Of a stretch of 64,000 nt of DNA, positions 17,551 through 62,492 are shown one piece after another; the first letter of the stretch is position 1; every line of letters begins with the position of its first letter. The notes beneath the pieces were generated by a model, which saw only the letters and a program-made list of their open reading frames with translations, did not search any database and had not been told where the DNA came from. A program made the translations under genes and the position numbers. The DNA is from Octopus vulgaris (taxonomy: Eukaryota): contig OX597822.1 in the NCBI GenBank assembly GCA_951406725.2, positions 107,074,001-107,138,000 on the forward strand, given 5' to 3'.

Positions 17551-17875
17551 TAATGATAAAGATAATGGATGAAGATGAAGTAGATATAGCTGAACGGCTT
17601 GGTATTGATTGACAAGTTAATTATGACGGGTGAAAAACCAAAAGGCGTTTTCTATACGAGTGAACAAAAAGATTATGAATTTTTATTTGATGGATAAACA
17701 CTGCACAGGGAATGATCTAAGATTAATGATAAAGATAATGGATGAAGATGAAGTAGATATAGCTGAACGGCTTGGTATTGATTGACAAGTTAATTATGAC
17801 GGGTGAAAAACCAAAAGGCGTTTTCTATTACGAGTGAACAAAAAGATTATGAATTTTTATTTGATGGATAAACAC
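17551..17875. repeat. ~150-bp local tandem duplication
   Basis: taatgataaagataatgg...gatggataaacac at 17551-17701 and 17724-17875, nearly identical. Confidence 0.93.
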
Positions 17876-18477
17876 AGAGAGGACAAACAAGGACAGACAA
17901 ACGGATTAAGTTGATTATATCGACCCCAGTGCGTAACTGGTACTTATTTAATCGACTCCGAAAGAATAAAAGGCAAAGTCGCCCTCGGCGGAATTTGAAC
18001 TGTGAACGTAGCGGCAAACGAAATAGCTATTTCTTTACTACCCACAAACAAGGACAGACAAACGGATTAGGTCGATTATATCGACCCCAGTGCGTAACTG
18101 GTACTTATTTAATCGACTCCGAAAGAATAAAAGGCAAAGTCGCCCTCGGCGGAATTTGAACTGTGAACGTAGCGGCAAACGAAATAGCTATTTCTTTACA
18201 ACCCACAAGGGGCTAAACACAGAGAGGACAAACAAGGACAGACAAACAGATTAAGTCGATTATATCGACCCCAGTGCGTAACTGGTACTTATTTAATCGA
18301 CTCCGAAAGAATGAAAGGCAAAGTCGACCTCGGCGGAATTTGAACTGTGAACGTAGCGGCAAACGAAATAGCTATTTCTTTACTACCCACAAGGGGCTAA
18401 ACACAGAGAGGACAAACAAGGACAGACAAACGGATTAAGTCGATTATATCAACCCCAGTGCGTAACTGGTACTTAAT
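17869..18477 (-). mobile_element. SINE-B 4-unit array
   Basis: Junctions gaaatag|ctatttc at 18026/27, 18187/88 and 18371/72. Confidence 0.93.
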
Positions 18478-19550
18478 TCGTAACTCTTTTTATAAACATA
18501 GTATATTTTCATTTATCTTCATAATATATAAACTATTGGATTTTATTTAACTTATATACCTCAACATATCATGAAACTCAGCTGAAATAAGTCGTAGAAA
18601 GTCGGTTTTTAGTCTCTTCCACTTCATTCGTACCCAAGACTAAATGCTTTCATAAATAGACACATTGCTTCACAATTTGTGTGATGCATTAACCTAAAGG
18701 ATTTTATTCACTAGTTATCAAATTTGCATTTTCCAGCAAATTTGAATCAACACTTGTCTATTTGAAGTAGAATAAATACTCTAAGAGAAAGTGTGTTGCT
18801 TGTTACACGGAACATGATGAATCGAAGCTAAAAAGCTTTTTGCGATTGCAATAACTTCGTTGTAAGCAACTTATTTCCTGACGACTCGAGGTTCCTAACC
18901 CCGATTAAATTCTAAATACTTTTAAACATATATACGTTCATATACTGAACTCATTAATTATTGAGCGGCGCTTTTTATATTTGACGTGACTTTAATTCCA
19001 AAGGAAACCGTAAAGAGGAAAATAATGTATCTCCGCATCAAATCTATTCAAATCAAGTACAAGACAGCCCTACACGACTCTTAGATATATCTTCCTACAT
19101 TATATTTTTCTATGTAGCCAAAGCAAGAAATAATCAAAGTATGATCAAAAGATCTTCGTATAATGCACGTTAATGGTTTTCAGTTGCTGGTTTAGATACA
19201 AGGTCACCCTTAAATAGAAAAGTCAACTAAGAAGATTTAATCTATAAAATATCAGTAAAAGCACTTGTCGTTAATCTCTAAAATGTTGCTTCGTTTCTTC
19301 ATGTATTCTTAGCCATGTCTTTCTCACAACGATACATAATGGTACGCTTTATAAGCTTTTTTTTTACCAAACTTTATCATTACTCACGCAAACACATACA
19401 TGCACACACAAAGTCGAGTAGGCGCATACTCACATAAGCATGCGCTAGCACACACACACACACACACATATTAAGCACATATATATACCTAAATACATTT
19501 ATATATATATACATATATATATATATATACATACATGTATATATACCTAA

Positions 19551-20057: not shown

Positions 20058-20059
<2 letters not shown>

Positions 20060-20281
20060 CTGGCAGAAACTTTAGCGCGCCGGGCGAAATGCTTCGCGGT
20101 ATTTCGTCTGTCGTTACGTTCTGAGTTCAAATTCCGCCAAGGTCGACGTTGCCTTTCATCCTTTCGGGGTCGATAAATAAAGTACCAGTTATGCACTGGG
20201 GTCGATGTAATCGACTTAATCCCTTTTTCTGTCCTTGTTTGTCCCCTCTATGTTTAGCCCCTTGTGGGTAGTAAAGAAATA
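20058..20281 (+). mobile_element. SINE-B monomer inside (TA)n
   Basis: gctggcagaaac...gtgggtagtaaagaaata. Confidence 0.92.
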
Positions 20282-21262: not shown

Positions 21263-21493
21263 TATTTCTTTACTACCCACAAGGGGCTAAACACAGAGAA
21301 GACAAACAAGCACAGACAAACGGATTAAGTCGATTAGATCGACCCCAGTGCGTAACTGGTATTTAATTTATCGACCCCGAAAGGATGAAAGGCAAAGTCA
21401 ACCTCGGCGGAATTTGAACTCAGAACCTAATGGCAGACGAAATACGGCTACGCATTTCGCCCGACGTGCTAACGATTCTGCCAGCTCGCCGCC
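21263..21493 (-). mobile_element. SINE-B monomer with ~20-bp TSD
   Basis: TSD taataaagaaacatatctat at 21246-21265 and 21494-21513. Confidence 0.93.
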
Positions 21494-25275: not shown

Positions 25276-25333
25276 ATATATATGTATAACTTAGAAAGGT
25301 TTTTGGCCAGTATTGGCCCAGGCCATGTCTAAC

Positions 25334-28300
25334 TTAATAGCACCACCTGGCGAAGTCTTTCAGTTCAGGATTTGGGCACCAAGGCCCATTCGAGCAGAGA
25401 GTTATTGTTTGCGGAGACATATCCGGGTGTGGATGGTTTGTCCGGTACTGTTTGAAGGAATTTGTCCAAAGACTTCTTGAATTTTGTGTGGTCAGTTTCT
25501 TTTTTTTGACGTGTCCTGGTGTAATGTTGAAGAGAGCGGGTCCAATTGAGGTGAAATAGTTGTGCCGTATTGTCGTTATGTGATGCGATTTAGATTTTTG
25601 TTGTGGACGGATGGCACGTGGTCCAAGTCTTGGATGCATTTTGAAGGTGATGCCAACATCATTCGGACAGTGCTGATGGAATATTTTCCACATCATACAG
25701 ATAATGTAGCGTTCACGGCGTCGTTGGAGTGAATACAATTTCAGCTTCTCTAGTCTACCCCAGTAGTCAAGGTCTGACATGCCATCTATCTTTTTTGTGA
25801 TTGACCTTTGGGGAGCTTCAATTCTCATAATATTTTGTTTTGTGTAGGGAGACCACAGTGGACAGCAGTATTCAAGGTGGGGTCGGGCAAAAGTGGAGAA
25901 GAGAAGGATAATAGCGTGGGAATCTCTCGACTGGAAGGTTCTGAGAATCCAGGAACACATTCTGCGGGCCATGTCAACTTTGCTGCTTATATGTGTAGCC
26001 CAGCTTATGTTGTTGTCCACTGTTACTCCCAGGTCTCTGATGTTGTTGGATGCCATGAGAATTTCTCCAGAAGGAAGAGAGTATGGGAGTTTCAGAGCGT
26101 CCTCCCTTCCAAAGTGGATCAGTTCGAATTTGTCTTCATTTAGCAACATGTTATTCTTTTCCGCCCATTGGACAACAGCTAGTAGGTCTGACTGAAGGTT
26201 TATTCGGTCATCCACGCCATTGATGACCTTCTGGAGCTTGGAATCATCAGCGAAGGTTCTGATGTTGCTGTGTTTGATGGTGTCAGTAATATCATTTATG
26301 TAGATGATGAAGAGAAGTGGGCCCAACACAGTGCCTTGTGGGACACCACTGCTGACTTTGGCTGGGCTGGATTTGACTCCTTCGACTACAACATGTTGGG
26401 TTCTGTTAGAGAGGAAGCACTTGATCCATTGCAGCAGCTTTCCAGTGACACCAATATTGGACAGCTTTCTCAGAAGGATCTTATGATCAACCCTGTCAAA
26501 GGCCTTGCTGAAATCAAGGTAGATGACATCAGTGTTGGAACCCTCTCCCAAGGCTCTCAAAATGTCATCAAAATGATGCAGTAGCTGCGTCAGGCAATCT
26601 CTCCCATTACGGAATCCATGCTGGTTGGGGTTCAGCATATTATGACTCTCAAGGAAGTGAGTCATACGCGATCTCAGCACCCTCTCAAATACCTTGATGA
26701 TATGAGAGGTGAGTGAGATTGGACGGTAATTCACGGCAAGCGATTTGTTTCCTTTTTTGAAAACTGGGATAACAGACTGGGATAGAAGGTCTTCTGGTAT
26801 ATATCCAGCATCCAATGAGTTCCGCCACAGATTGGCTAGAGGGAGTGCAAGTTGGTTTTGACACATCTTCAAGACACAAGCAGGGAACCTATCGGGACCT
26901 ACTGCTGAATTATGCTTCATTTCCTTTATTGCTGCTAAGACATCAGGAGCGCCAAATGTTATGTCCGATAAAGTGTATTGGGGAGTAACATCACTGATAC
27001 AGCCCAGATCAGTCATATCAGGATTGTTGAAAACAGAGCAATATTGTTTCTGCAATATTTCTCCCATGGTTTTGGCATTGTCTTGAAGAATACCATTTTC
27101 ATCAATCAGAGGGCCAACAGTAGAACCAGTGACTCTGTGTTTTTTTGCAAATGAAAAGAACACTTTGGGATTGAGTTTGATCTTCTCAATGGCCCAGGCC
27201 TCTTCAGCTCTTCGCTGACTATTGATGATAGACATCATGTTGTTTTGGAGTTTATGTTTTTTAATCTCTAGCGACGAGATGGGAGTCAGGTTGGTGTGTT
27301 GCTGTTGACAGTATTTCAGCATGTTGATCTTTTTGTTGATTCTTTTAATTTTCCTTATGAGAGATTTTCTATTTCTAGGGATTCGACACTTAGATTTGTT
27401 TGCAGATCTTAATGGGGTGTGTCTTGCACATATGTTCGTGATGGTGTCTACAAGTGACTGCCAGGACTTTTTGATGTTAGTGGGTGTGTATGTGTGCGTG
27501 AAGGACCAATCGACTTGTGCAAGATCATTATTGATCGCTTCCCAGTTTGCATTGTGGAAATCCATAGTGTCAAATGGATGAACAGGAGGGATGACATTTG
27601 TTTTGCATTTTGGCCAGTGAAATCTCAGATCACAGAGAACCATGTCATGGTCGGAGAGTAGGGTTTTCTCCACTGCAATATTGTGGATAGTATCAGTGTG
27701 ATTGCTGAAAATTAAGTCTAAGACGTTTTTGTGACATCTCGTTGGTTCGAGTACCAGTTGGGACAAGAAGAAGTCATCCATGAAGTCAAGAAGCGATTCC
27801 ACTGCCTCCCTGTCAGGGGTTGAGAGAGAAGAACCTGGCGGCAGACTGTTTGTAGACCAGTCAACCCCGGGAAGGTTGAAATCTCCCATCATTAAAATGT
27901 TGTCAGGTTGACACTGCTGAATGAAACACTTTATGCTGTTGAGGCATTCCTTGAAGCATGGTAGGGGCGTTTGGGGTGGTCTGTAGAGCCCAACTACTGT
28001 TAAGTTGTTGGTTTGACTGAATACAGCGACTGCTTCGCAGTATCCATTCGAAAATATGTTCATGGCTTCTGTTGAGAATGAATCATGGACATAAATGGCA
28101 GTCCCACCCTTTCTTCTGCCAACACGATCAGCACGAATGGTTTTGAAATTTTTAACTTTCACCTCGGCTTCCAAGTGGAGGTCACTAAGATGGGTTTCAG
28201 TGAGGACGAAGAAAGGGATGTGGTTTGGATGGGCCTCGACCCAGTCCTCCAGGAATCTTATCTTCCATTTTTGTGTATTGGTGGAAGGGCTGATGCCTTG

Positions 28301-28384
28301 GGCATTAAGCAGAAATGTTGAGGCGAGAGTGGATGGTTTTAATTGTTTTGGTGATTTGTTTATTTGATTGCTTTTTAATGGCAT
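25334..28384 (-). CDS. LINE ORF2p: APE endonuclease plus reverse transcriptase
   Basis: LTETHL, YRPP, MGDFN and SDH (APE); NYRPISLTS, YLDFSKAFDRVDH, SGVPQGTVLGPLLF and FADD (RT). Confidence 0.97.
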   Translation of the reverse strand: MPLKSNQINKSPKQLKPSTLASTFLLNAQGISPSTNTQKWKIRFLEDWVEAHPNHIPFFVLTETHLSDLHLEAEVKVKNFKTIRADRVGRRKGGTAIYVHDSFSTEAMNIFSNGYCEAVAVFSQTNNLTVVGLYRPPQTPLPCFKECLNSIKCFIQQCQPDNILMMGDFNLPGVDWSTNSLPPGSSLSTPDREAVESLLDFMDDFFLSQLVLEPTRCHKNVLDLIFSNHTDTIHNIAVEKTLLSDHDMVLCDLRFHWPKCKTNVIPPVHPFDTMDFHNANWEAINNDLAQVDWSFTHTYTPTNIKKSWQSLVDTITNICARHTPLRSANKSKCRIPRNRKSLIRKIKRINKKINMLKYCQQQHTNLTPISSLEIKKHKLQNNMMSIINSQRRAEEAWAIEKIKLNPKVFFSFAKKHRVTGSTVGPLIDENGILQDNAKTMGEILQKQYCSVFNNPDMTDLGCISDVTPQYTLSDITFGAPDVLAAIKEMKHNSAVGPDRFPACVLKMCQNQLALPLANLWRNSLDAGYIPEDLLSQSVIPVFKKGNKSLAVNYRPISLTSHIIKVFERVLRSRMTHFLESHNMLNPNQHGFRNGRDCLTQLLHHFDDILRALGEGSNTDVIYLDFSKAFDRVDHKILLRKLSNIGVTGKLLQWIKCFLSNRTQHVVVEGVKSSPAKVSSGVPQGTVLGPLLFIIYINDITDTIKHSNIRTFADDSKLQKVINGVDDRINLQSDLLAVVQWAEKNNMLLNEDKFELIHFGREDALKLPYSLPSGEILMASNNIRDLGVTVDNNISWATHISSKVDMARRMCSWILRTFQSRDSHAIILLFSTFARPHLEYCCPLWSPYTKQNIMRIEAPQRSITKKIDGMSDLDYWGRLEKLKLYSLQRRRERYIICMMWKIFHQHCPNDVGITFKMHPRLGPRAIRPQQKSKSHHITTIRHNYFTSIGPALFNITPGHVKKKKLTTQNSRSLWTNSFKQYRTNHPHPDMSPQTITLCSNGPWCPNPELKDFARWCY

Positions 28385-29315
28385 GTGTAGTGGGGTAATA
28401 GTGGTGGATGGCGGTGGGTGATAGCTCGGATGTTTTTTTCCAGTTCTTTTGCTAGATTCATTATAGCTAAAAAAGAGGAAGAAGAGGTGGTTTCCTGTCT
28501 AGGGAACCGCAGGTGACTGTGGCCGCGGCTATTTTTATGTGAGTGGTTATCTTTAAATGTCCGACGAGTCCCCGGGAGATGGGTAAAGGGGCAATCCCTG
28601 TGCAAACACAATCTGTCTCGCTGGGAATAGCGGCAGATTTGGGGATTCCTTGTTTGAGATATTGGTGGTTGTGGTGATGTTGTATTATGGTGGTTGCTGT
28701 TGTAGTTTGTGGGGATAGAGCGTTTTGTTCCAGGTAAATGGGTGAATTTGCAGTCTCTATCAGTGCACAGTCTATGGCGAAGAGAATATCGGCAAATGAT
28801 GGGGTTTCGAGTGGGTGTGTAGGTGCGTGTATGTGTGTGAGCTGTGAAAGGTGTAGATGATAGTTTGAAGTTTTGGCGACCTTTGTGACCTGTAGGAGGT
28901 AAATTCCTTGAGATAGCATTAGTAGTAGTAGCTGTAGTAGTAGTAGTAGTAGTAGGTAGAAGAGATGTTGACGGTGGTAATGATTGAGGAGGTCGATTCC
29001 AAGACAAAGATGTTTGTCGATATATAGTGGGAGTAGTACTAGTAGTAGTAAGCAGAGGAGATGGTGTTGACAATGATGATGATTGAGCTGCTGGGGCAGT
29101 GAAAGGAAGGGGTGGTGCTTCCTGCTGTGTGACCCTGATAACTGGGGGGTCAATCGTTTCATTTAGCAAATCAGCCATTGTAGATGAATCAAGGAGTGGT
29201 TCATCCTGTTGTTGTTGTTGAGGTTGTTGTTGTTGCCTCTGAGGTTGTTGCTGCTGAAGTTGTTGTTGTTGCTGTAACTGTTGTTGTTGTTGTTGTTGCC
29301 GCTGAGTTTGTTGTT
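28375..29315 (-). CDS. LINE ORF1p with poly-Q and two CCCH zinc fingers (N-terminus truncated)
   Basis: [19 protein letters not shown] and [19 protein letters not shown]; frame stays open upstream of Met 29178 as Q-rich sequence; overlaps ORF2 by 10 bp. Confidence 0.85.
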
Positions 29316-29342
29316 GTTATATATATATATATATTGTTGTTG

Positions 29343-31878: not shown

Positions 31879-32470
31879 GGCGGCGAGCTGGCAGAATCGT
31901 TTACACGCCGGGTGAAATGCGTAGCCGTCTTTCGTCTGTCGTTACGTTCTGAGTTCAAATTCCGCCGAGGTCGACTTTGCCTTTTATATCCTTTCGGGGT
32001 CGATTAAATAAGTACCAGTTACGCACTGGGGTCGATATAATCGACTTAATCCTTTGTCTGTCCCTGTTTGTCCTCTCTGTGTTTAGCCCCTTGTGGGTAG
32101 TAAAGAAATAGAAATAGGTATTTCGTCTGCCGTTACGTTCCGAGGTCGACTTTACTTTTCATCCTTTTGGGGCCGATAAATTAAGTACCAGTTACGCACT
32201 GGGGTCGATATAATCGACTTAATCCGTTTGTCTGTCCTTGTTTGTCTCCTTTGTGTTTAGCCCCTTGTGGGTAGTAAAGAAATAGGTATTTCGTCTGTCG
32301 CTATGTTCTGAGTTCAAATTCCGCCGAGGTCGACTTTGCCTTTTATATCCTTTCGGGGTCGATTAAATAAGTACCAGTTACGCACTGGGGTCGATATAAT
32401 TGACTTAACCCGTTTGTCTGTCCTTGTTTGCCTCCTTTGTGTTTAGCCCCTTGTGGGTAGTAAAGAAATA
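31879..32470 (+). mobile_element. SINE-B 3-unit array with one TSD
   Basis: Junctions gaaatag|gtatttcgtctg at 32117/18 and 32285/86; TSD tatgtaaatgta flanks the whole array. Confidence 0.93.
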
Positions 32471-38594: not shown

Positions 38595-39270
38595 GTATAT
38601 ATATATGTATATATATATATATATGTATATACATATATATATATATGTACATACACACACATATATACATATGTATATATGTACGTGTTGATATATATAT
38701 ATATGCATATATGTGTTTATGTGCGTATAAGTGGATGTATGTATCTATATATACATATATACTTGCATATATAAATATACATACATATACATATATACAA
38801 GCATATATATATATATATATGCATGTATATATGTATATACATGCACACAGGAGTGGCTGTGTGGTAAGTAGCTTGCTAACCTCACTGACAGAAGAGTGAC
38901 TTTGCCTACCGTACTACGGTTTGGACGGGTTTTCTTCCCGGTAAGAGTTTTGCTGTGTTGTTAATTGTTGAATTCCTACTACTGAAAATTTGCCTTTAAA
39001 CGTTGCTGAACTGTCTTGTTCTCCGGTTTTACCGGGAAATAATTGAATAATTTCTTACCGTTGAACTGTTAGCCACTGTGGCTTTTTATTTACGTGACTA
39101 TATATAGTCCTGCCAGACTATTTTCGTGCCCCTCCCCCGAATGGGGGTGGGAATTGGAATTTTTGAACTGCTTTTTTGAACTACTTTGGAAGAAAAACTT
39201 TCTATAGGTTTCCCAGTTTTGTGGGAAACCAATACTCGTAATTTTTGTGTTGTCTAATTTCAACAGAATA

Positions 39271-40675
39271 ATGTCTTTTGAAATTATTCACGAAAGTAGT
39301 GCTCTTGAGGAGAGCAATGTTAAAAAATTTTCTGAGGTAGCCGCAGTGGCTACCGAGAGCATTGACATCGATGTCAACCAGCTCGTCGAGCTATTTAAAA
39401 GAATGCAAGAGGAGGGTGGTGATGTTAAAATATCACTCTCCGCCAGTATCGTGGAGACCGAGAAGCGGACCGTAGTGTTTAAAACTTTCTGTCCATAAAG
39501 CAGAAGGTTCAAACACTTTGAAAAAAGCTCTATCGAGAAATGCCTGTCCCCGATTTGGAAGGACATCGTGTACGTCGCCAGGGGACGGGCATATGGCACT
39601 GTGGATGTCCGCTTCTCGGGGAAGAAATGGCCCGCGGGCATTCTGTGAACCCCCTAAAAACCAAGGAGGTGGTACTTTTTCCAAGCTATAGGGGACGCAG
39701 GACGTCCCGGGTCAGGATTGTAGAAGCCCCGCCGGAAGTAGATCCGGTAGAGGTAGTGGCCGCCCTATTATATAAAAGGGCGGACAAAATAAAAATGCTA
39801 GAAGTAACATGCTCTACCCCTCGATTTTGGCTCGGGTGTAACATTAATATATTAATTCAAGGAACAGCGGAAGACCTGCAGCACCTTCCTGAGAGGGTGC
39901 TCGTGGGCGAGAACGTAGCCCTCAGGGTACAGGTCGAAGGCCGAAAACTCACCTGTTACGCCTGCGGCAAAAGGGCCACATTCGTGTAGACTGTCCAGAC
40001 AAGCAAAAGAAACCGCAGACACCAGGCCCCTCAGATAATAAAAAAGTCCCTACCCTTGCAAACACACCTACCCCTACAAAAGCAAAAAAAATCCCACTCC
40101 TGCTGTTACGGTGCCAACCCCAAAACAGACTGAAGAAAAAACCCAGCCCTCGCACTCACAAACCCCTACACTATTAAAACCTCTCACCCCCCTAAAAACT
40201 GCGGCGCCTATCGAACAAACTATTGCTACCCCAGACGATACCATGGAGGTATCAGAGGGGGGATTTACACCAGTTCGTAAAAGAATTCGTGCAGCATCCC
40301 CGTCCACATCCCCTACAAAAAATAATAAAAACAAAGACACACCACAGACACGAAAAAAAAAATCCCGCTCAACTGGCCCAGAAAAAGAAGACAAAAAAAA
40401 AAAATAAACTCATATTAATTGAATTCGACACACAAGAAAAATACATAAACGATATTGTGGTTCAGCATCAGTCAGCAAGACTGTACAACAAATACAAAGA
40501 TCGAAATAGACACGCGTGGATTGCGGAAACAACGTTCAAACAATTAAAAGACAGACACCCAAACGCCATCCGGCATATCGCGAACTTGCCGGACTATCTG
40601 AAGAAAGAGGAGAAAGAAGGGGCCCACAAACGTGTGGTGAGGTCGGCCCCCACCTCTCCAACGAAATGTAAGTAG
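39271..40675 (+). pseudogene. Tx1 ORF1 (gag-like, CCHC knuckle), frameshifted
   Basis: Consecutive ORF fragments; CYACGK/GHIRVDC knuckle spans a frameshift near 39970; K/P/T-rich C-terminus. Confidence 0.8.
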
Positions 40676-40692
40676 AACTTTTACTTTTTGTA

Positions 40693-43600
40693 ATGGCTTC
40701 GCTTAACCTTGGTTGTTTAAATGTGCGTGGTCTGAGTTCGAAGTGGAAGCAGGCTTGTTTCCTCGACGACCTCAGATCACATGATATACATGTGATGGTT
40801 GCTACAGAGACCAAGCTGGACAGCCTACAAACCTTCTCGCCTCTCCTGAATGGCTACGAGAAAATCATGTCTCCTGGCCAGACCGGATGGCGAGGGGGCG
40901 TAGTGGTACTGATCCGTAAAGACTTGGCTCTACAGACAAGTACAGTCTATGTAGACCCAGAAGGTGGGCTGGTCGTCCTTGATGTGACATACAGCAGTAA
41001 GGCCTTCAGGTTGATCGGACTCTATGCACCTTGTGCTAGAGGTTTCCAAACTGATTTTTATCGGCGCCTAGAGGGCTTTCTCGTAACGTCGAAGACTTTA
41101 GTGATATTAGGGGACTTTAATGCTATCGTTGACGTACACATCGATAGCGTTGGCTCGATCTATAGGAAAGTGAACTCACGTCTCGTGGATCTGCTTAAGC
41201 GGTTTCAGCTGGCAGATCGTTACAGACTTGACCATCCGAACGTCCCAGAGTGGACCTGGATGAGTGGCGACGGAAGGTTCAAGTCTTATCTAGACAGGAT
41301 AGTGATAAGAACTAGAGATAAGTCTAGTTTTAGTTGTCCACAGCTCGTCCAGGTGCCCTATACTGACCATAGAATGGTCACGTGTAGACTGGACATAGAT
41401 AGCACACTTAAGATAGGAACCGGCTACTGGAAGCTGAACAAGTCTATTTTGACACGCGAGGCATACCGTAGCCGGATTAAGGTGTTAGTGCAGAGGGCGT
41501 TAACCGGAGCCGTGGTTAATAACCGGTGGTGGTTCACCCTCAAAAGAGCCATTCGATTCGAGTCCATTAGATTTAGTAAACAACTAAGACTAGATAGGGC
41601 TAGAATAGAAGGGCAACTAGTTAAGAACTTAGAGGAGACGTTGAGGTTGGGCTCTGCATCTCACATTTTAGCGGCGAGAACGGCATTAGACCGTCACCTC
41701 AAAACCAAACATGAGGGATGTAGAGTCCGGGCTAAAGTACGAGCATTGGGCCGTGAGGGAATTAATGTTGCCGGATGGGCCCGTACGATAGAAACACAGC
41801 GTGGAAACGATGCCACAATTGGGTCTCTTGTTGATGAAAACGTATGCACGATCAAGAAGCGGGACGAGATGTGAGGCACTTCACAAGCACTTCGCCGAGT
41901 TGTTCGGGAGGTGCGGGACGCTGGATCATGGTGAGGCCCTTAGGGACTTCCTGTCTGGTGGCCCGCGCCTCTCGACACGAGAGGCTGAGTGCTGTGAGGG
42001 GCCAATCACAGCCGAGGAAGTAATCGAGGTGTTGGGCAAGTGCCAGACTTGTTCGGGCACCTGCTGGCTAGCGTCTACGCCAACTGGCGGCAGAATGGGA
42101 GAATTCCCAAGTCTGCGAACCGGGGGGCGGTGACGTTGATCAGGAAGGACCCGAACAAGGGGGACGAGATAGGGAACTTCAGGCCCATAACTCTGTTAAA
42201 CACAGAGTTAAAGATTCTGGCCAAGGTGCTAGCAAAAAGGTTGGCGCGGGTCGTGGACAAACTTGTCGGGGAAGCGCAAACGTGCGCTATCCCCGGCAGA
42301 ACGATCCACGACAATCTCCACCTTATACGCTACTCCTTAGAGAGGGTGGGGAAGCTTTCTGGCGCAGGGGGAGCACTGGTACATTTAGACCAGTCCAAAG
42401 CATTTGATAGGGTCGACCATCGGTACCTGGCGGCGGTCCTCGGAGAGGCTGGCCTAGGCCCGACCTTTCGAGGTTGGATCGCTGCTTTGTATAGCGACAT
42501 CGAGTCTGTAGTCAAGGTGAACGGTTCCTTTTCGAAGCCGTTCAGGATCGAGCGTTCAGTTCGTCAAGGGTGTCCCCTGTCCTCGCTCCTATACGTATTG
42601 GCTCTTGAGCCTTTGCTGCGGAAGTTGGAGGCACTAGGGGGCGCGCCGCATGATCTATGGTGTGGAAGAGGAGCTACGGCGTATGCGGATGACACCTCCA
42701 TCATCGTGGCAGACGAAGGCTAGCTTCCAGTGGTGGAAGAGGCCATCAAAAGCTACGAGGCGGTGGCAGGAGCAAAGGTTGACAAGGACAAGTCGGTCGG
42801 TTTGCAACTCGGCACCTGGAGAGGCAAGCCGATGCCGTCCAATAACGTCGTAGGGCGTTGGACGGAAGGTCCTGTTAAGCTGCTCGGAGCCTGGTTCGGG
42901 TCAGACCTCCAGATTGAGAAAAATTGGAGTGAGGTGGCCAACAAGGTGACCGCTCTAACCCAGACCTGGTCTGGGCGGGCGTTATCCCTGCTAGGGAAGG
43001 CGGAGGTGGTGCAGATGTTTATAGCATCAGTAATCACCTACCGTCTGACCGTGGTGCCTTGCCTCGGTTTGTGGCTGAACAAGTTGGAGAGAATCCTTTT
43101 CCGATTTTTGTGGAAAGGAGGAAAGCCACTTGTAAAGCGCTCTGTCTGCTGCCAGAAACCGCTAAAGGGTGGGCTAGGGATGCCTTGGCTGAGGATGCGA
43201 AAACTCGCGTTAAGGTTGAGGCACCTCTGGCTTTACCTGGATGGAGAGCAGGTGTGGTCGCCGCACGTCCGGTTCTACCTTCCCCAGTTAACATCCCTAA
43301 CGGACATCGGTGCATGGATCAAGCGGAGACCTAAACTGAGTGAATGGCATTTGGAGTGCCGTCAGGCGCTCCAGCTACTATCTCGGGTGGGCAACGCCGG
43401 CAACAGGAGTTCCACCACGGAATTCTATAGCGGGTTAGTGGAGATTAAGTCCGAAGACGCCTTGGGGGAGACCCTGGGCTACGATGAAAATCAGTTGGTC
43501 AACCTGTTCCGGAGGACGTTCGGGCCGGGGTATCTGGATAATTACCAGAAATCCCTGGCCTGGCAGTGTTTCCGTGCGGCTTTACCTGTTCGCGACAAGC

Positions 43601-44034
43601 TGTCAAGGCACGGTAGTGCCGTCTCGCCGACATGCCCGCGATGTGAGCAGGATAGGGAGACCGTCTTGCACGCATTCGTGGAGTGTCCGGAGTTATCGGG
43701 ACTCATAGCTTTTGTTGAACAACTGTTGTCAGTGATGGGAAGAGTACAGCTATCAGCTGAGTCTATCATCGAGATTGTGCCGCCCCCTTTCCTTATCAGG
43801 GAAAGAAAGGCTTGTTTTTTCTGTGTAGTAGCCATACTGAAAGAAACAGTATGGAAGACGCGTACGAAAGGTATAGTGACAGGCACCTTTGTCTCCGACC
43901 AGGGGTTGATTAACTATTTTAGTTACCACCTCAGTAGCAAAATCAGGCTGGAGAAGAGGTGTCTGTCACGAGATATGTTTGTCAAAAGATTGAAGCCTGT
44001 GGCATACAAGATGGGTATGTTTGGCACCAGGTAA
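40693..44034 (+). pseudogene. Tx1 ORF2 (APE, RT and C-terminal zinc knuckle), disrupted
   Basis: LNVRGL, GDFN, YTDH, GYWKLN; FRPITLLN, DQSKAFDRV, RQGCPLS, YADD; CPRC..ETVLHAFVEC; breaks at ~41870, ~42040 and a stop at 42721. Confidence 0.95.
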
Positions 44035-44262
44035 GTGTGACCGGATCAGAAAGTAAAGGTTCTACCCGGATGGCAGGGTGTCCGTCTTTCGACATGATCA
44101 TTAATATTTTTAAACATTGCCTTCGTAAAATTCATTGTTTATAATCTTATCCGTAATTTCATTCGAAAATTGTAACTGTGTTAAGCTACTTCACCCTTTA
44201 TATTTGTCTGTCCGTGTTTGTCCCGTCTTTGTAAATGCCTAAATGGCAAATTATATGAAATA

Positions 44263-44645
44263 AAGTAGCTTGCTAACCAACCACATGGTTCCGGGTTCAG
44301 TCCCACTGCGTGGCATCTTGGGCAAGTGTCTTCTGCTATAGCCCCGGGCCGACCAATGCCTTGTGAGTGGATTTGGTAGACGGAAACTGAAAGAAGCCTG
44401 TCGTATATATGTATATATAGGTGTGTGTGTGTATGTTTGTGTGTCTGTGTTTGTCCCCCTAGCATTGCTTGACAACCGATGCTGGTGTGTTTAGTCCCTG
44501 TCACTTAGCGGTTCGGCAAAAGAGACCGATAGAATAAGTACTGGGCTTACAAAGAATAAGTCCTGGGGTCGATTTGCTCGACTAAAGGTGGTGCTCCAGC
44601 ATGGCCGCAGTCAAATGACTGAAACAAGTAAAAGAGTAAAAGAGA
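44263..44645 (+). mobile_element. Remainder of the SINE-A interrupted by Tx1 (its head is at 38849-38881)
   Basis: Joining the two parts reconstitutes a full SINE-A. Confidence 0.93.
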
Positions 44646-44742
44646 GAGTATATATGCATGTATATATATATGCATGTATATATATATATATATATAATAT
44701 AGATAATATATCCATACATACATACACATATATCTATTTATT

Positions 44743-48596: not shown

Positions 48597-48985
48597 GTGT
48601 AGGAGTGGCTGTGTGGTAAGTAGCTTCCTTACGAACCACATGGTTCCGGGTTCAAGTCTCACTGCGTGGCACGTTGGGCAAGTTTCTTCTACTATAGCCT
48701 CGGGCCGACCAAAGCCTTGTGAGTGAATTTGGTAGACGGAAACTGAAAGAAGCCCGTTGTATATATGTATATATATATGTATGTGTGTATATGTTTGTAT
48801 ATCTGTGTTTGTCCCCCCAACATTGCTTGATAACCGATGGTGGTGTGCTTACGACCCCGTAACTTAGCGGTTCGGTCGAAGAGACCGATAGAATAAGTAC
48901 TAGGCTTACAAAGAATAAGACCTGGGGTCGATTTGCTCGACTAAACGCGGTGCTCCAGCATGACCACATTCAAATGTCTGAATAA
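48597..48985 (+). mobile_element. SINE-A full-length copy
   Basis: Matches 8577-8990. Confidence 0.92.
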
Positions 48986-49195
48986 ATTCATACTTTATCC
49001 CACTCAAAACATATCTTGAGGGCCACATTTTCTAATGTATCATTTTTTAAGACAGTAGTATGTAATGTGCAGAAGATTTGGCTGCTGTTTCTAACTAGTC
49101 ATGTTACGATAAAGACGCTCTGTCTTCAACTATCTCTATCTCGTTGGTTCTCGGTGACATCTAAAGGCAAACAAGAGTTATCAGTGCTATATATA

Positions 49196-49778
49196 TTTCT
49201 TTACTACCTACAAGGGGCTAAACAAGGAAAGACAAAGGTATTAAGTCGATTACATCGACCCCAATGCGTAACTGGTACTTAATTTATCAACCCCGAAAGG
49301 ATGAAAGGCAAAGTCGACCTCGGCGGAATTTGAACTCAGAACGTAACGACAGATGAAATAGCTGTTTCTTTACTACCCACAAGGGGCTAAACACTGAGAG
49401 GACAAACAAGGACAGACAAACGGATTAAGTCGATTATATCAACCCAAGTGCGTAACTGGTACTTATCTAATCGACCCCGAAAGGATGAAAGGCAAAGTCG
49501 ACCTTGGCGAAATTTGAACTCAGAACGTGGCTGCAGACGAAATACCTATTTCTTTATTACCCACAAGGGGCTAAACACAGAGGGGACAAACAAGGACAGA
49601 CATAGGTATTAAGTCGATTATATCGAACCCCAGTGCGTAACTGGTACTTAATTTAATCGACCCCGAAAGGATGACAGGCAAAGTCGACCTTGGCGGAATT
49701 TGAACTCACAATGTAACGCAGACGAAATACCGTAAAGCATTTCGCCCGGCGCGCTAACGTTTCTGCCAGCTCGCCGCC
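49196..49778 (-). mobile_element. SINE-B 3-unit array with TSD
   Basis: Junctions at 49361/62 and 49545/46; TSD tatcagtgctRtata at 49179-49193 and 49781-49795. Confidence 0.93.
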
Positions 49779-51369: not shown

Positions 51370-51399
51370 AATGGGAGAGTAGTCACATGACTTCTCAAA

Positions 51400-51690
51400 A
51401 GACAGAAGCCAGGCTGTGGCAGCCAATGTAGCCCTGTCAAAGGAAGCAATAACCCCGAGTGGAGTTCCTCAGGGTCATGTCTTGGGGCCACTGCTGTTTG
51501 TGGTAGCCCTTTCGGACATGCCATCAGTTACAAAGACAGCTACACTTACTAACTACGTCGACGGTATAACGGCAGTGTAAGCAGTGAAGAACCTATCGAT
51601 GCTACCTTTTTACGAAAAGAACTAGACGTCTTTAATAAATAGTTTGAAGAAAATAACACACAGTTTTATGCAGGTTAATTCCAAGACTTA
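51400..51690 (+). pseudogene. Old CR1-group RT fragment
   Basis: SGVPQGHVLGPLLFVVALSDMP...NYVD, homologous to SGVPQGTVLGPLLF...FADD. Confidence 0.8.
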
Positions 51691-53951: not shown

Positions 53952-54300
53952 GGCGGCGAGTTGGCAGAAACGTTAGCACGCCGGGCGAAATGCTTAGCAG
54001 TATTTCGCCTGCCGCTACTTTCTGAGTTCAAATTCCGCCAATATAATCGACTTAATTTGTTTGTCTGTCCTTGTTTGTCCTCTCTGTGTTTAGCCCCTTG
54101 TGGGTAGTAAAGAAATTTATTTTATTGTTATTCTTTTACCTGTTTCAGTCATTTGATTGCGGCCATGCTAGAGCACTCACTTTAGTCGAGCAAATTGGCC
54201 CAGGATTTATTCTTTGTAAGCTTACTACTTATTCTAACGGTCTTTTTGCCGAACCGCTAAGTTACGGGGAGGTAAACACACCACCATCGGTTGGCAAACA
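53952..54300. mobile_element. Internally deleted SINE-B (plus) followed by a SINE-A 3' half (minus)
   Basis: Sequence match to both families. Confidence 0.8.
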
Positions 54301-61068: not shown

Positions 61069-61469
61069 TATTTCTTTATTGCCCACAGGGGGCAACACGC
61101 AGAGGAGACAAACGGACTAGGTCGATTATATTGACCTCAGTGCGTAACTGGTACTTATCGACTCCGAAATGATGAAAGGCAAAGTCGACCTCGGTGGAAT
61201 TTGAACTCAGAACGTAGCGGCAGACGAAATACCTATTTCTTTACTACCCACAAGGGGCTAAACACAGAGAAGACAAACAAGGACAGACAAACGGATTAAG
61301 TCGATTATATCGACCCCAGTGCGTAACTGGTACTTATTTAATCGACCCCGAAAGGATGAAAGGCAAAGTCGACCTCGGCGGAATTTGAACTCAGATTTGA
61401 ACGTAACGGCAGACGAAATACCACTAAGCATTTCGCCCGGCCTGCTAACGTTTCTTCCAGCTCGCCTCC
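61069..61469 (-). mobile_element. SINE-B 2-unit array
   Basis: Junction gaaatac|ctatttc at 61232/33. Confidence 0.92.
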
Positions 61470-61940
61470 ACTATTTGCTAACGTGTTATACAGAGCCACC
61501 TCAAGAATAAATAGATACCTCTTATTCTACCATTTTACCTCTACGGTCTCTACGTTGTGCTTTCTATTCGATAGTCCATTATTATATGTATTTCAGGTAC
61601 CATGTTGAGAGAGATACCCCAGAATATACTCCAACTTACTTGGAGTTACTGTACAAAAACGGGGATTATTTTCAACCATTCGGCCGGCAGCACAGAAGCA
61701 ACTCTCAGAGGATCCAGGTCAACCTCAGTGGGATGTTATCGATTCCTTTCTTTTGCTGCGGAATTGTATAATCACTGTTGATATTGGCAAGATGAATCCC
61801 GAGTATTCGTGCATCATACGTGAGATAAATCCATCAGATAAACCCACAATACACTCTCTTTTAAAATCAAACAACGCTTGTACTCCTGTGTTCACAGCCT
61901 GGGTAGATGCTATAAGTAATTAATATACTGCAATCCGATA

Positions 61941-62133
61941 TGGCACAAGGACAGCAATTTTGTTGAAGGATGTCAGCCGATTACATCGAACCCTGTGTTC
62001 AACTGATACGTAATTTATCGATCCCGAAAGGATGAAAGGCAAAATAGACATAGGCGGAATTTGAACTCAGAACGTAAAGACGGACAGAACGCTGCTAAGT
62101 ATTTTGCCTGGCGTGCTAACGATTCAGCCAGCA
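61941..62133 (-). mobile_element. Older SINE-B with alternative tail
   Basis: SINE-B core with a ...ccttgtgcc tail. Confidence 0.75.
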
Positions 62134-62492
62134 ATATATTTACAAGTTTGGAACCCCAGGTAGTGTCCGCGCAGATAAAACGGTTTCTAAATGCTGTGTA
62201 TAGCGGACAAAGCGGAACATCCTATCAACAATGATTCACGGAAATCGCACATACTTTCTACAATAAAAGTGCGTCTATGATACACTGTTCGTTATATAAC
62301 GGGGGCAACATACTTCGTCTACTTACGTGACAATAGGGTACACGCCATGGGAAAGCCCACAAAAGGACGTAAAGCGTATGTCGACTAATATATCGCTTCG
62401 CTTCTATATATATCTATTTTGACAAAAATCAAGCTGTCCTCCCGGTCACTGATGTAATACGATAAACATGTAACAATGATAGTGGCTGGTGG

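Follow-up and report, generated by a model that had tools for sequence, protein, structure and literature searches.

The window, a 64-kb stretch of Octopus vulgaris DNA, is AT-rich, and microsatellites and SINEs abound in it. The sequence shown above is the 3' untranslated region (UTR) of a LINE that interrupts a SINE, here called SINE-A. The LINE and its junctions are made up as follows.

38866..38881, forward strand: 5' target site duplication (TSD) of the LINE, 16 bp, within the SINE-A head (exact repeat)
38882..44262, forward strand: LINE, Tx1-like, full-length, decayed (APE endonuclease, reverse transcriptase (RT), and zf-RVT domains; exact 16-bp TSD)
40693..44034, forward strand: ORF2, broken (stop codons at 41872-41874, near a frame change, and at 42721-42723)
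44035..44262, forward strand: 3' UTR of the LINE, 228 nt (placed by the end of the reading frame and by contig continuity)
44203..44232, forward strand: 30-nt block common to the LINE and a second SINE, SINE-B (alignment; family letters at 44214 and 44225)
44236..44248, forward strand: hairpin (stem of 4 bp, loop of 5 nt) in the same register as that of SINE-B (folding, alignment)
44257..44262, forward strand: terminal GAAATA of the LINE, reading AATAAA with the first bases of the TSD
44263..44278, forward strand: 3' TSD of the LINE, 16 bp (exact repeat)
44263..44650, forward strand: remaining part of the SINE-A that the LINE interrupts (empty copies at 8582, 36320, and 48601; inner motif at 44436-44465)

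The first-pass annotation of this DNA had called the LINE a Tx1 element, and both its domains and its RT scores support a Tx1-like nature. ORF2 carries an endonuclease (PF03372), an RT (PF00078), and a C-terminal zinc knuckle (PF13966). Its endonuclease part is 84% identical to a protein of Octopus bimaculoides, and a close homolog shares 71% identity with a protein of Argonauta hians. A piece of the RT scores 211-223 bits against tandemly arrayed LINEs in animal-like DNA of one genome bin, 141-169 bits against LINEs whose 3' ends lie in genes for U2 (contig L056) or U1 (L052 and L062), 84 bits against human L1, 61-72 against R2, and 53 against a CR1-like LINE in the window. Since the RT scores higher against LINEs inserted in U2 and U1 genes than against L1, R2, or the CR1-like LINE, and insertion into U2 marks the Tx1 family Keno, a Tx1-like identity is favored, as judged by RT scores rather than by a tree with named Tx1 sequences; no homolog found by homolog searches, a cluster look-up, or an atlas was labelled Tx1.

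The Tx1-like LINEs within U1 snRNA genes (L052:8294-8470 and L062:7238-7406) and U2 (L056:3497-3678) come from bins labelled as bacteria. Loci L003-L049 belong to one bacterial genome bin, in which many contigs consist of LINEs arranged head to tail with a period near 6.4-6.8 kb and 42-43% identical to the query protein. These arrays are likely host animal DNA misbinned as bacterial.

SINE-B is present as 10 elements in the window:

5402..5817, reverse strand: head and two units, best match to the block
7505..7857, reverse strand: two units, 14-bp TSD, the 3' end entering the start of a further unit
13029..13219, reverse strand: a piece of SINE-B continuing into a body and tail of sister type
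17866..18478, reverse strand: array of four units, truncated at both ends
20058..20281, forward strand: monomer in a (TA)n tract
21263..21493, reverse strand: monomer, its 17-21-bp TSD sharing bases with the terminal ATA
31879..32470, forward strand: three units, 12-bp TSD
49194..49778, reverse strand: three units, 15-bp TSD with one mismatch
53952..54117, forward strand: element with an inner deletion
61069..61469, reverse strand: two units, the second diverged (90%)

The layout is a 47-nt head followed by one to four units of about 185 nt, with a monomer of 231 nt, and units are 90-99% (mostly 94-96%) identical to their consensus, a divergence of about 5%. To judge by its sequence, SINE-B has the features of a tRNA-derived SINE (SINE2): a tRNA-like head, short length, dispersal, TSDs, and no ORF. 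Within the head are motifs that we take to be A- and B-like boxes, read by eye against the usual box consensus. ARAGORN found no tRNA gene for SINE-B, nor was any of the Rfam matches listed (150 of 230) a tRNA. Among the records listed as carrying the sequence, none was an RNA such as transcription by RNA polymerase III would give. Ohshima and Okada reportedly described, in 1994, the tRNA-derived octopus SINEs OK, OR1, and OR2; SINE-A or SINE-B may be among them, the likeness being one of description only.

A tail pattern gave 22 matches, of which four were unrelated and dropped and 18 are SINE-B tails. Ten of these run into a next unit and eight end the element; in 17 the end is GAAATA to within one letter, and the remaining tail repeats that hexamer. 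The multimers are head-to-tail and always end at GAAATA, and the unit junction (GAAATA, GG, TATTTC) is a short inverted repeat. Such junctions lie at 5586, 7662, 18028, 18189, 18373, 32110, 32284, 49363, 49547, and 61234. The repeat unit begins inside SINE-B's own tRNA-like region, and the end of the tail resembles a GAAATG in the head. The multimers could have arisen by self-insertion or from multimeric master genes. A hammerhead retrozyme was considered as their source and rejected: the hammerhead core, CUGANGA upstream of a stem and GAAA, is absent from the unit consensus (by eye), and no hammerhead appeared among the Rfam matches listed.

The tail of SINE-B had been claimed to match the 3' end of the LINE at 27 of 30 nt. 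This figure is exact for the best copies (5459-5430 and 5643-5614, both on the reverse strand) and not typical; it is a best case, since 15 aligned tails span 24-27/30 and the SINE-B consensus matches the LINE block at 26/30. Generic low-complexity sequence, named beforehand as an explanation that would defeat the claim, does not account for a match of this size. The local alignment between the last 60 nt of the LINE and SINE-B scores 40, which none of 10,000 dinucleotide shuffles reached (maximum 33), and none of 20,000 shuffled 30-mers reached 26/30 (maximum 25). Over 119,672 window positions outside SINE-B and 1,050,436 positions of unrelated, redundant loci, the highest background identity to the block was 22/30. 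The shuffles do overstate the margin for the copy in the window, because the block is a degenerate inner 10-nt repeat and because, against the score of 40 for the block, gapped scores of 29 and 31 arise from the inner motif of SINE-A and from the UTR of an unrelated LINE.

The block is the best match of the whole SINE-B consensus within the 5,381-nt LINE, and from there the alignment stays collinear as far as the end, apart from a single 2-nt gap (26-29/30 over the block itself); the distance from block to element end is 60 nt in the LINE vs 58 nt in SINE-B. Upstream of the block, the LINE shows no SINE-B body sequence when compared with the SINE-B consensus. A common ancestry of the block in the LINE and in the SINE-B copies is supported by these alignments. 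Identity is uneven along the tail, however: 27/30 in the block vs 15/28 in the terminal part (Fisher p 0.003), the latter matched by about 3-5% of shuffles of the last 28-30 nt. Such unevenness fits a mosaic.

A pattern scan of viral contigs gave no match to the block motif, and these contigs held no loci related to the LINE. A 21-nt block pattern matched metagenome contigs twice, both times in unrelated sequence and by chance. In the 19 of 62 related genome-contig loci (27-43% identity) where the tail was sought, no convincing match was found. The inner motif of SINE-A (44436-44465, also at 48794 and 3152) matches the block at 21-22/30 and adjoins the SINE-A microsatellite; it is due either to chance or to a buried older tail.

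Contigs of four public runs (X4, X8, X13, and X16) were aligned to 43400-44300. In each, the 3' UTR is a single collapsed contig continuous with ORF2, extending to 44232 in X13, X8, and X4 but only as far as 44218 in X16. Its depth is 1298 in X13 (where other contigs listed have 21-32), 155 in X8, and 10.3 in X4, which suggests near-identical LINE copies in the tens per genome, with the proviso that depth is not equal to copy number. In X8 and X4 the contigs have a T at 44214 and a C at 44225 (396/400 and 332/400; 20.2/20.2). With these family letters the block reaches, by hand count, 29/30 with the best SINE-B variant and 28/30 with the consensus. Divergence within the LINE family comes to six differences in 270 nt, about 2%. 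The continuity of the block with ORF2 in the collapsed contig, together with the family letters, marks the block as a feature of the family rather than a chimera peculiar to the copy in the window.

At 44236 other sequences join, common with the LINE only in the hairpin and end (three of four runs, among the contig loose ends listed), a hint that hairpin and end are kept between LINE families. A second family carries only the terminal hairpin and end (44236-44262) and has the loop TTTAT, which agrees with the SINE-B loop at 3/5; it is apparently more abundant than the LINE family. After 44237, SINE-A swamps contig depth. A change of A to T at 44241-44242 was considered as a letter of the LINE family and rejected: in X4, X8, and X13 the contigs with A at 44241 account for the whole depth at 44235, which leaves the T letters to contigs that start near 44236. 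The same contigs bear on where the LINE inserts. In the one copy at hand, the insertion point is just past the A box of the SINE-A head, and in X8 (one of four runs), four contigs among those listed pass into different sequence directly behind the 16 bp of the TSD, which hints at a use of this SINE-A site by related elements too. The LINE lineage may therefore target the SINE head, a proposal that draws on one copy and the contig ends.

Both elements had been said to form a short stem-loop near the end. The hairpins exist and occupy the same register (positions 34-46 from the start of the block in both tails), yet they are not unusually stable and their loops differ: TAAAT in the LINE vs CTTGT in SINE-B, with one of five positions kept. 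Folding gave a z of -2.0 for the last 33 nt of the LINE and of -0.95 to +0.5 for LINE and SINE-B tails of 58-95 nt. If two outer pairs are included, all six pairs are kept in 15 distinct rows (90/90 cells), three of them by double changes; these compensatory changes are suggestive only, since the structure was chosen after the sequences had been viewed and all three come from the LINE row.

At the very end, as claimed, the LINE and SINE-B both finish in GAAATA with no poly(A), and no simple repeat follows in SINE-B apart from 0-2 TA. The TSD lengths, claimed to be similar, overlap: they are an exact 16 bp for the LINE and 12, 14, 15, and 17-21 bp for SINE-B, clear in four of the eight elements that have a 3' end. 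The target junctions of SINE-B show 0-2 extra TA or an overlap of 2-5 bases, and one uses the first bases of a further unit. A purine-TA step is found at all five junctions with clear TSDs, that of the LINE included, though in this genome the step carries little information. None of the eight SINE-B ends lies in the SINE-A site used by the LINE. RTE retroposons, according to the available part of PMC6007223, have a T stretch some ten bases upstream; by eye, none of the four SINE-B TSDs shows one. At 5212-5396 (reverse strand), the end of a SINE-B and a short (TA)n are followed by a 3' fragment, 98% identical, of the CR1-like LINE, which may have arisen by nested insertion or as a chimera made by template switching.

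The origin of the tail may be approached through a sister SINE, of which two copies were compared:

12900..13032, reverse strand: body and tail of the sister SINE, without the 30-nt block, with a CTTGT-loop hairpin and a simple-repeat end
61900..62140, reverse strand: older copy with the same head and body and a tail of sister type

SINE-B and its sister have a common head or body and diverge about 8 nt before the block. The boundary between modules of the SINE is thus where similarity to the LINE starts, as expected for a tail swap. Beyond the block, the picture is less simple. The last 28 nt of SINE-B have 18 matches to the sister tail (equalled in 19/5,000 shuffles) vs 15 to the LINE (175/5,000), although the older sister copy gave a value that is not significant (700/5,000). 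The CTTGT loop is common to SINE-B and the sister SINE but not the LINE, while the sister ends in a TTG/TTA-like repeat and lacks the terminal GAAATA. On these alignments, the donor was either a Tx1 family outside the present sample with a CTTGT-like loop, or else the tail is a mosaic.

The explanation that we prefer, with a probability of roughly 0.55, is that SINE-B acquired a tail of Tx1 type and is moved in trans by the LINE's Tx1 lineage, more likely by a sister family than by this exact one. The SINE body would have gained its Tx1-type 3' end through a template switch. ORF2 would then bind the block and hairpin and nick the target beside a TA step; the terminal AUA, or else a few bases of read-through, would serve for priming, and the outcome would be TSDs of 12-21 bp, a fixed GAAATA end, and 0-2 extra TA. 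With priming set by the tail signal and not by the end of the transcript, head-to-tail multimers of one to four units would be copied as such. The first-pass annotation had named as driver the LINE's own Tx1 family or a close relative. The ancestry of the block, its 3' position, and the Tx1-like character of the LINE speak for this, but the part of the exact family is doubtful, because the SINE-B loop matches that of the sister SINE and none of the eight ends lies in the SINE-A site. A better match by a non-Tx1 LINE, the second outcome named beforehand as defeating the claim, was sought in the one other LINE of the window with a 3' end, the CR1-like LINE, which ends in a different repeat and shows no match to the SINE-B tail. 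Age counts against the preferred explanation: by proxies from one window, SINE-B units, about 5% from their consensus, look older than the LINE family at about 2%. Tentatively, and with the odds rather against it, one might go further and suppose that the Tx1 lineage recognises its RNA by a 3' block and hairpin and drives a SINE that ranks among the most abundant in the octopus genome, with read-through priming directing the LINE to the heads of SINE-A and SINE-B to its own head, thereby building multimers.

Perhaps, instead, the block is only a passenger. SINE-B would be a mosaic that keeps the hairpin, end, and partner LINE of its sister (possibly an RTE or other non-Tx1 element) and that picked up some 30-40 nt of Tx1 3' UTR by template switching. 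This would make sense of the uneven divergence along the tail, the closer match of the last 28 nt and loop to the sister, and the lack of a common target site between LINE and SINE-B; the TTG/TTA-like repeat that ends the sister also fits, and RTE-BovB is greatly expanded in cephalopods according to the available part of PMC10294476. It demands two switches, however, plus a chance agreement of register and of the GAAATA that the sister lacks, and it must do without either a simple-repeat tail on SINE-B beyond 0-2 TA or the T stretch of RTE type upstream of any of the four TSDs examined by eye. With the sister evidence coming from two copies only, we regard the passenger block as unlikely, though worth keeping in view. 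Less probable again is transfer in the reverse direction, in which the LINE family captured the block from RNA or DNA of SINE-B, by far the commoner element; the similarity would then be silent on what drives SINE-B. Numbers make this thinkable, as the window's 64 kb hold 10 SINE-B elements as against (roughly) tens of LINE copies per genome, and so do the youth of the LINE family, the habit of its lineage of inserting into SINEs, and the hairpin-sharing contigs that differ before 44236, so that the block may be new in the LINE family. Differing 3' UTRs are expected among sister LINE families in any case, the LINE has no SINE-B body upstream of the block, and the sister tail gives way to the block precisely at the module boundary of the SINE, the usual pattern of LINE-to-SINE transfer.

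Convergence, that is, TG/TC-rich sequence recurring by chance in a genome rich in microsatellites, can draw on the 21-22/30 match of the SINE-A inner motif, the degenerate 10-nt repeat within the block, the score of 31 for an unrelated LINE UTR, and the two chance metagenome matches to the 21-nt pattern. It is nevertheless largely refuted, and very improbable, given 29/30 at the family level vs a background of 22/30 in about 1.17 million positions, and given the near-equal distance from block to end in the LINE and SINE-B.

Mobilisation of SINE-B by a Tx1 lineage would be unusual. The tables of PMC3747384 list 58 SINEs with LINE tails, only three of them of the L1 clade (in maize/sorghum and Chlamydomonas), none of those three in an animal and none of Tx1 type. 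The rarity of tail-sharing that had been claimed for the L1/Tx1 clade agrees with the three pairs found there for more than 800 L1-clade LINEs. The animal partners tabulated are of L2, CR1, RTE, I, Vingi, Crack, and Rex1 type, unlike that proposed for SINE-B, and the bivalve SINE partners named in the available part of PMC4824008 are CR1 and L2. In architecture, SINE-B nonetheless resembles such SINEs. UnaSINE (partner UnaL2) and BivaV-SINE2 (partner CR1-14_CGi) likewise have a tRNA-like head and an exchangeable tail shared with a LINE (PMC3747384 and PMC4824008, as far as available), and pairs of the UnaSINE/UnaL2 type have a fixed 3' end, as here, and a small 3' stem-loop with compensatory changes, as the tails here suggest. 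SINE-B and its LINE differ from stringent pairs in that their identity, high ahead of the hairpin, is low inside it, and in having no terminal simple repeat in common. Closest in clade are ZmSINE2 and ZmSINE3 with LINE1-1_ZM and SINEX-3_CR with L1-1_CR, which also join a tRNA SINE to an L1-clade LINE by a structured 3' end; as tabulated in PMC3747384, they belong to plants and a green alga, whereas SINE-B and the LINE are from an animal and the Tx1 branch.

A more direct parallel is SINEU of crocodilians, which the available part of PMC4494074 proposes to be mobilised by Tx1-Mar. There, too, SINE copies occur in tandem, Tx1 inserts into another mobile element as the LINE does here, and some SINE families are weaker in targeting (13-23%), which we count as a likeness to SINE-B. 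SINEU is tied to Tx1 by target, has a poly(A) tail, and has, in that source, no LINE with the 3' end of SINEU-1; SINE-B is tied by its tail, and its target differs. Other elements in the same source, Tx1L in Tx1D, Keno in U2, and Kibi and Koshi in microsatellites, resemble the LINE in having an ORF2 of endonuclease, RT, and zinc knuckle, a TSD near 16 bp, and a multicopy target (PMC4494074). Unlike theirs, the LINE's target, as indicated by one copy and hints from contig ends, is a tRNA-like SINE head.

For the octopus itself, the available part of PMC13282606 gives 80 L1-Tx1 families in O. vulgaris and attributes 11.6% of the genome in the genus to SINEs, mostly unclassified; no SINE/Tx1 pairing is reported in that part of its main text or in the supplement. 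No report of a SINE with a Tx1 tail, in octopus or elsewhere, was found in literature that included the available parts of PMC4758252, PMC5786205, PMC3531059, PMC3899998, and PMC5804259; subscription papers, Repbase, and Dfam may hold one. Whether enzymes of the L1 superfamily were ancestrally strict or relaxed in their choice of RNA is an open question that, in the available part of PMC3747384, rests on three plant and algal pairs. If the preferred explanation is true, SINE-B and the LINE would be an animal pair of the L1 superfamily with a common tail, strict recognition would extend to the branch next to vertebrate L1, the 60-nt signal would be open to mutational testing, and a driver could be named for the SINE that fills much of the window.

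The CR1-like LINE lies at about 25280-29320 on the reverse strand, between (TA)n tracts. It has an open ORF2 of 1,054 aa and an upstream frame of 313 aa, and it may be young. A short, decayed RT fragment resembling it is found at 51392-51562 on the forward strand.
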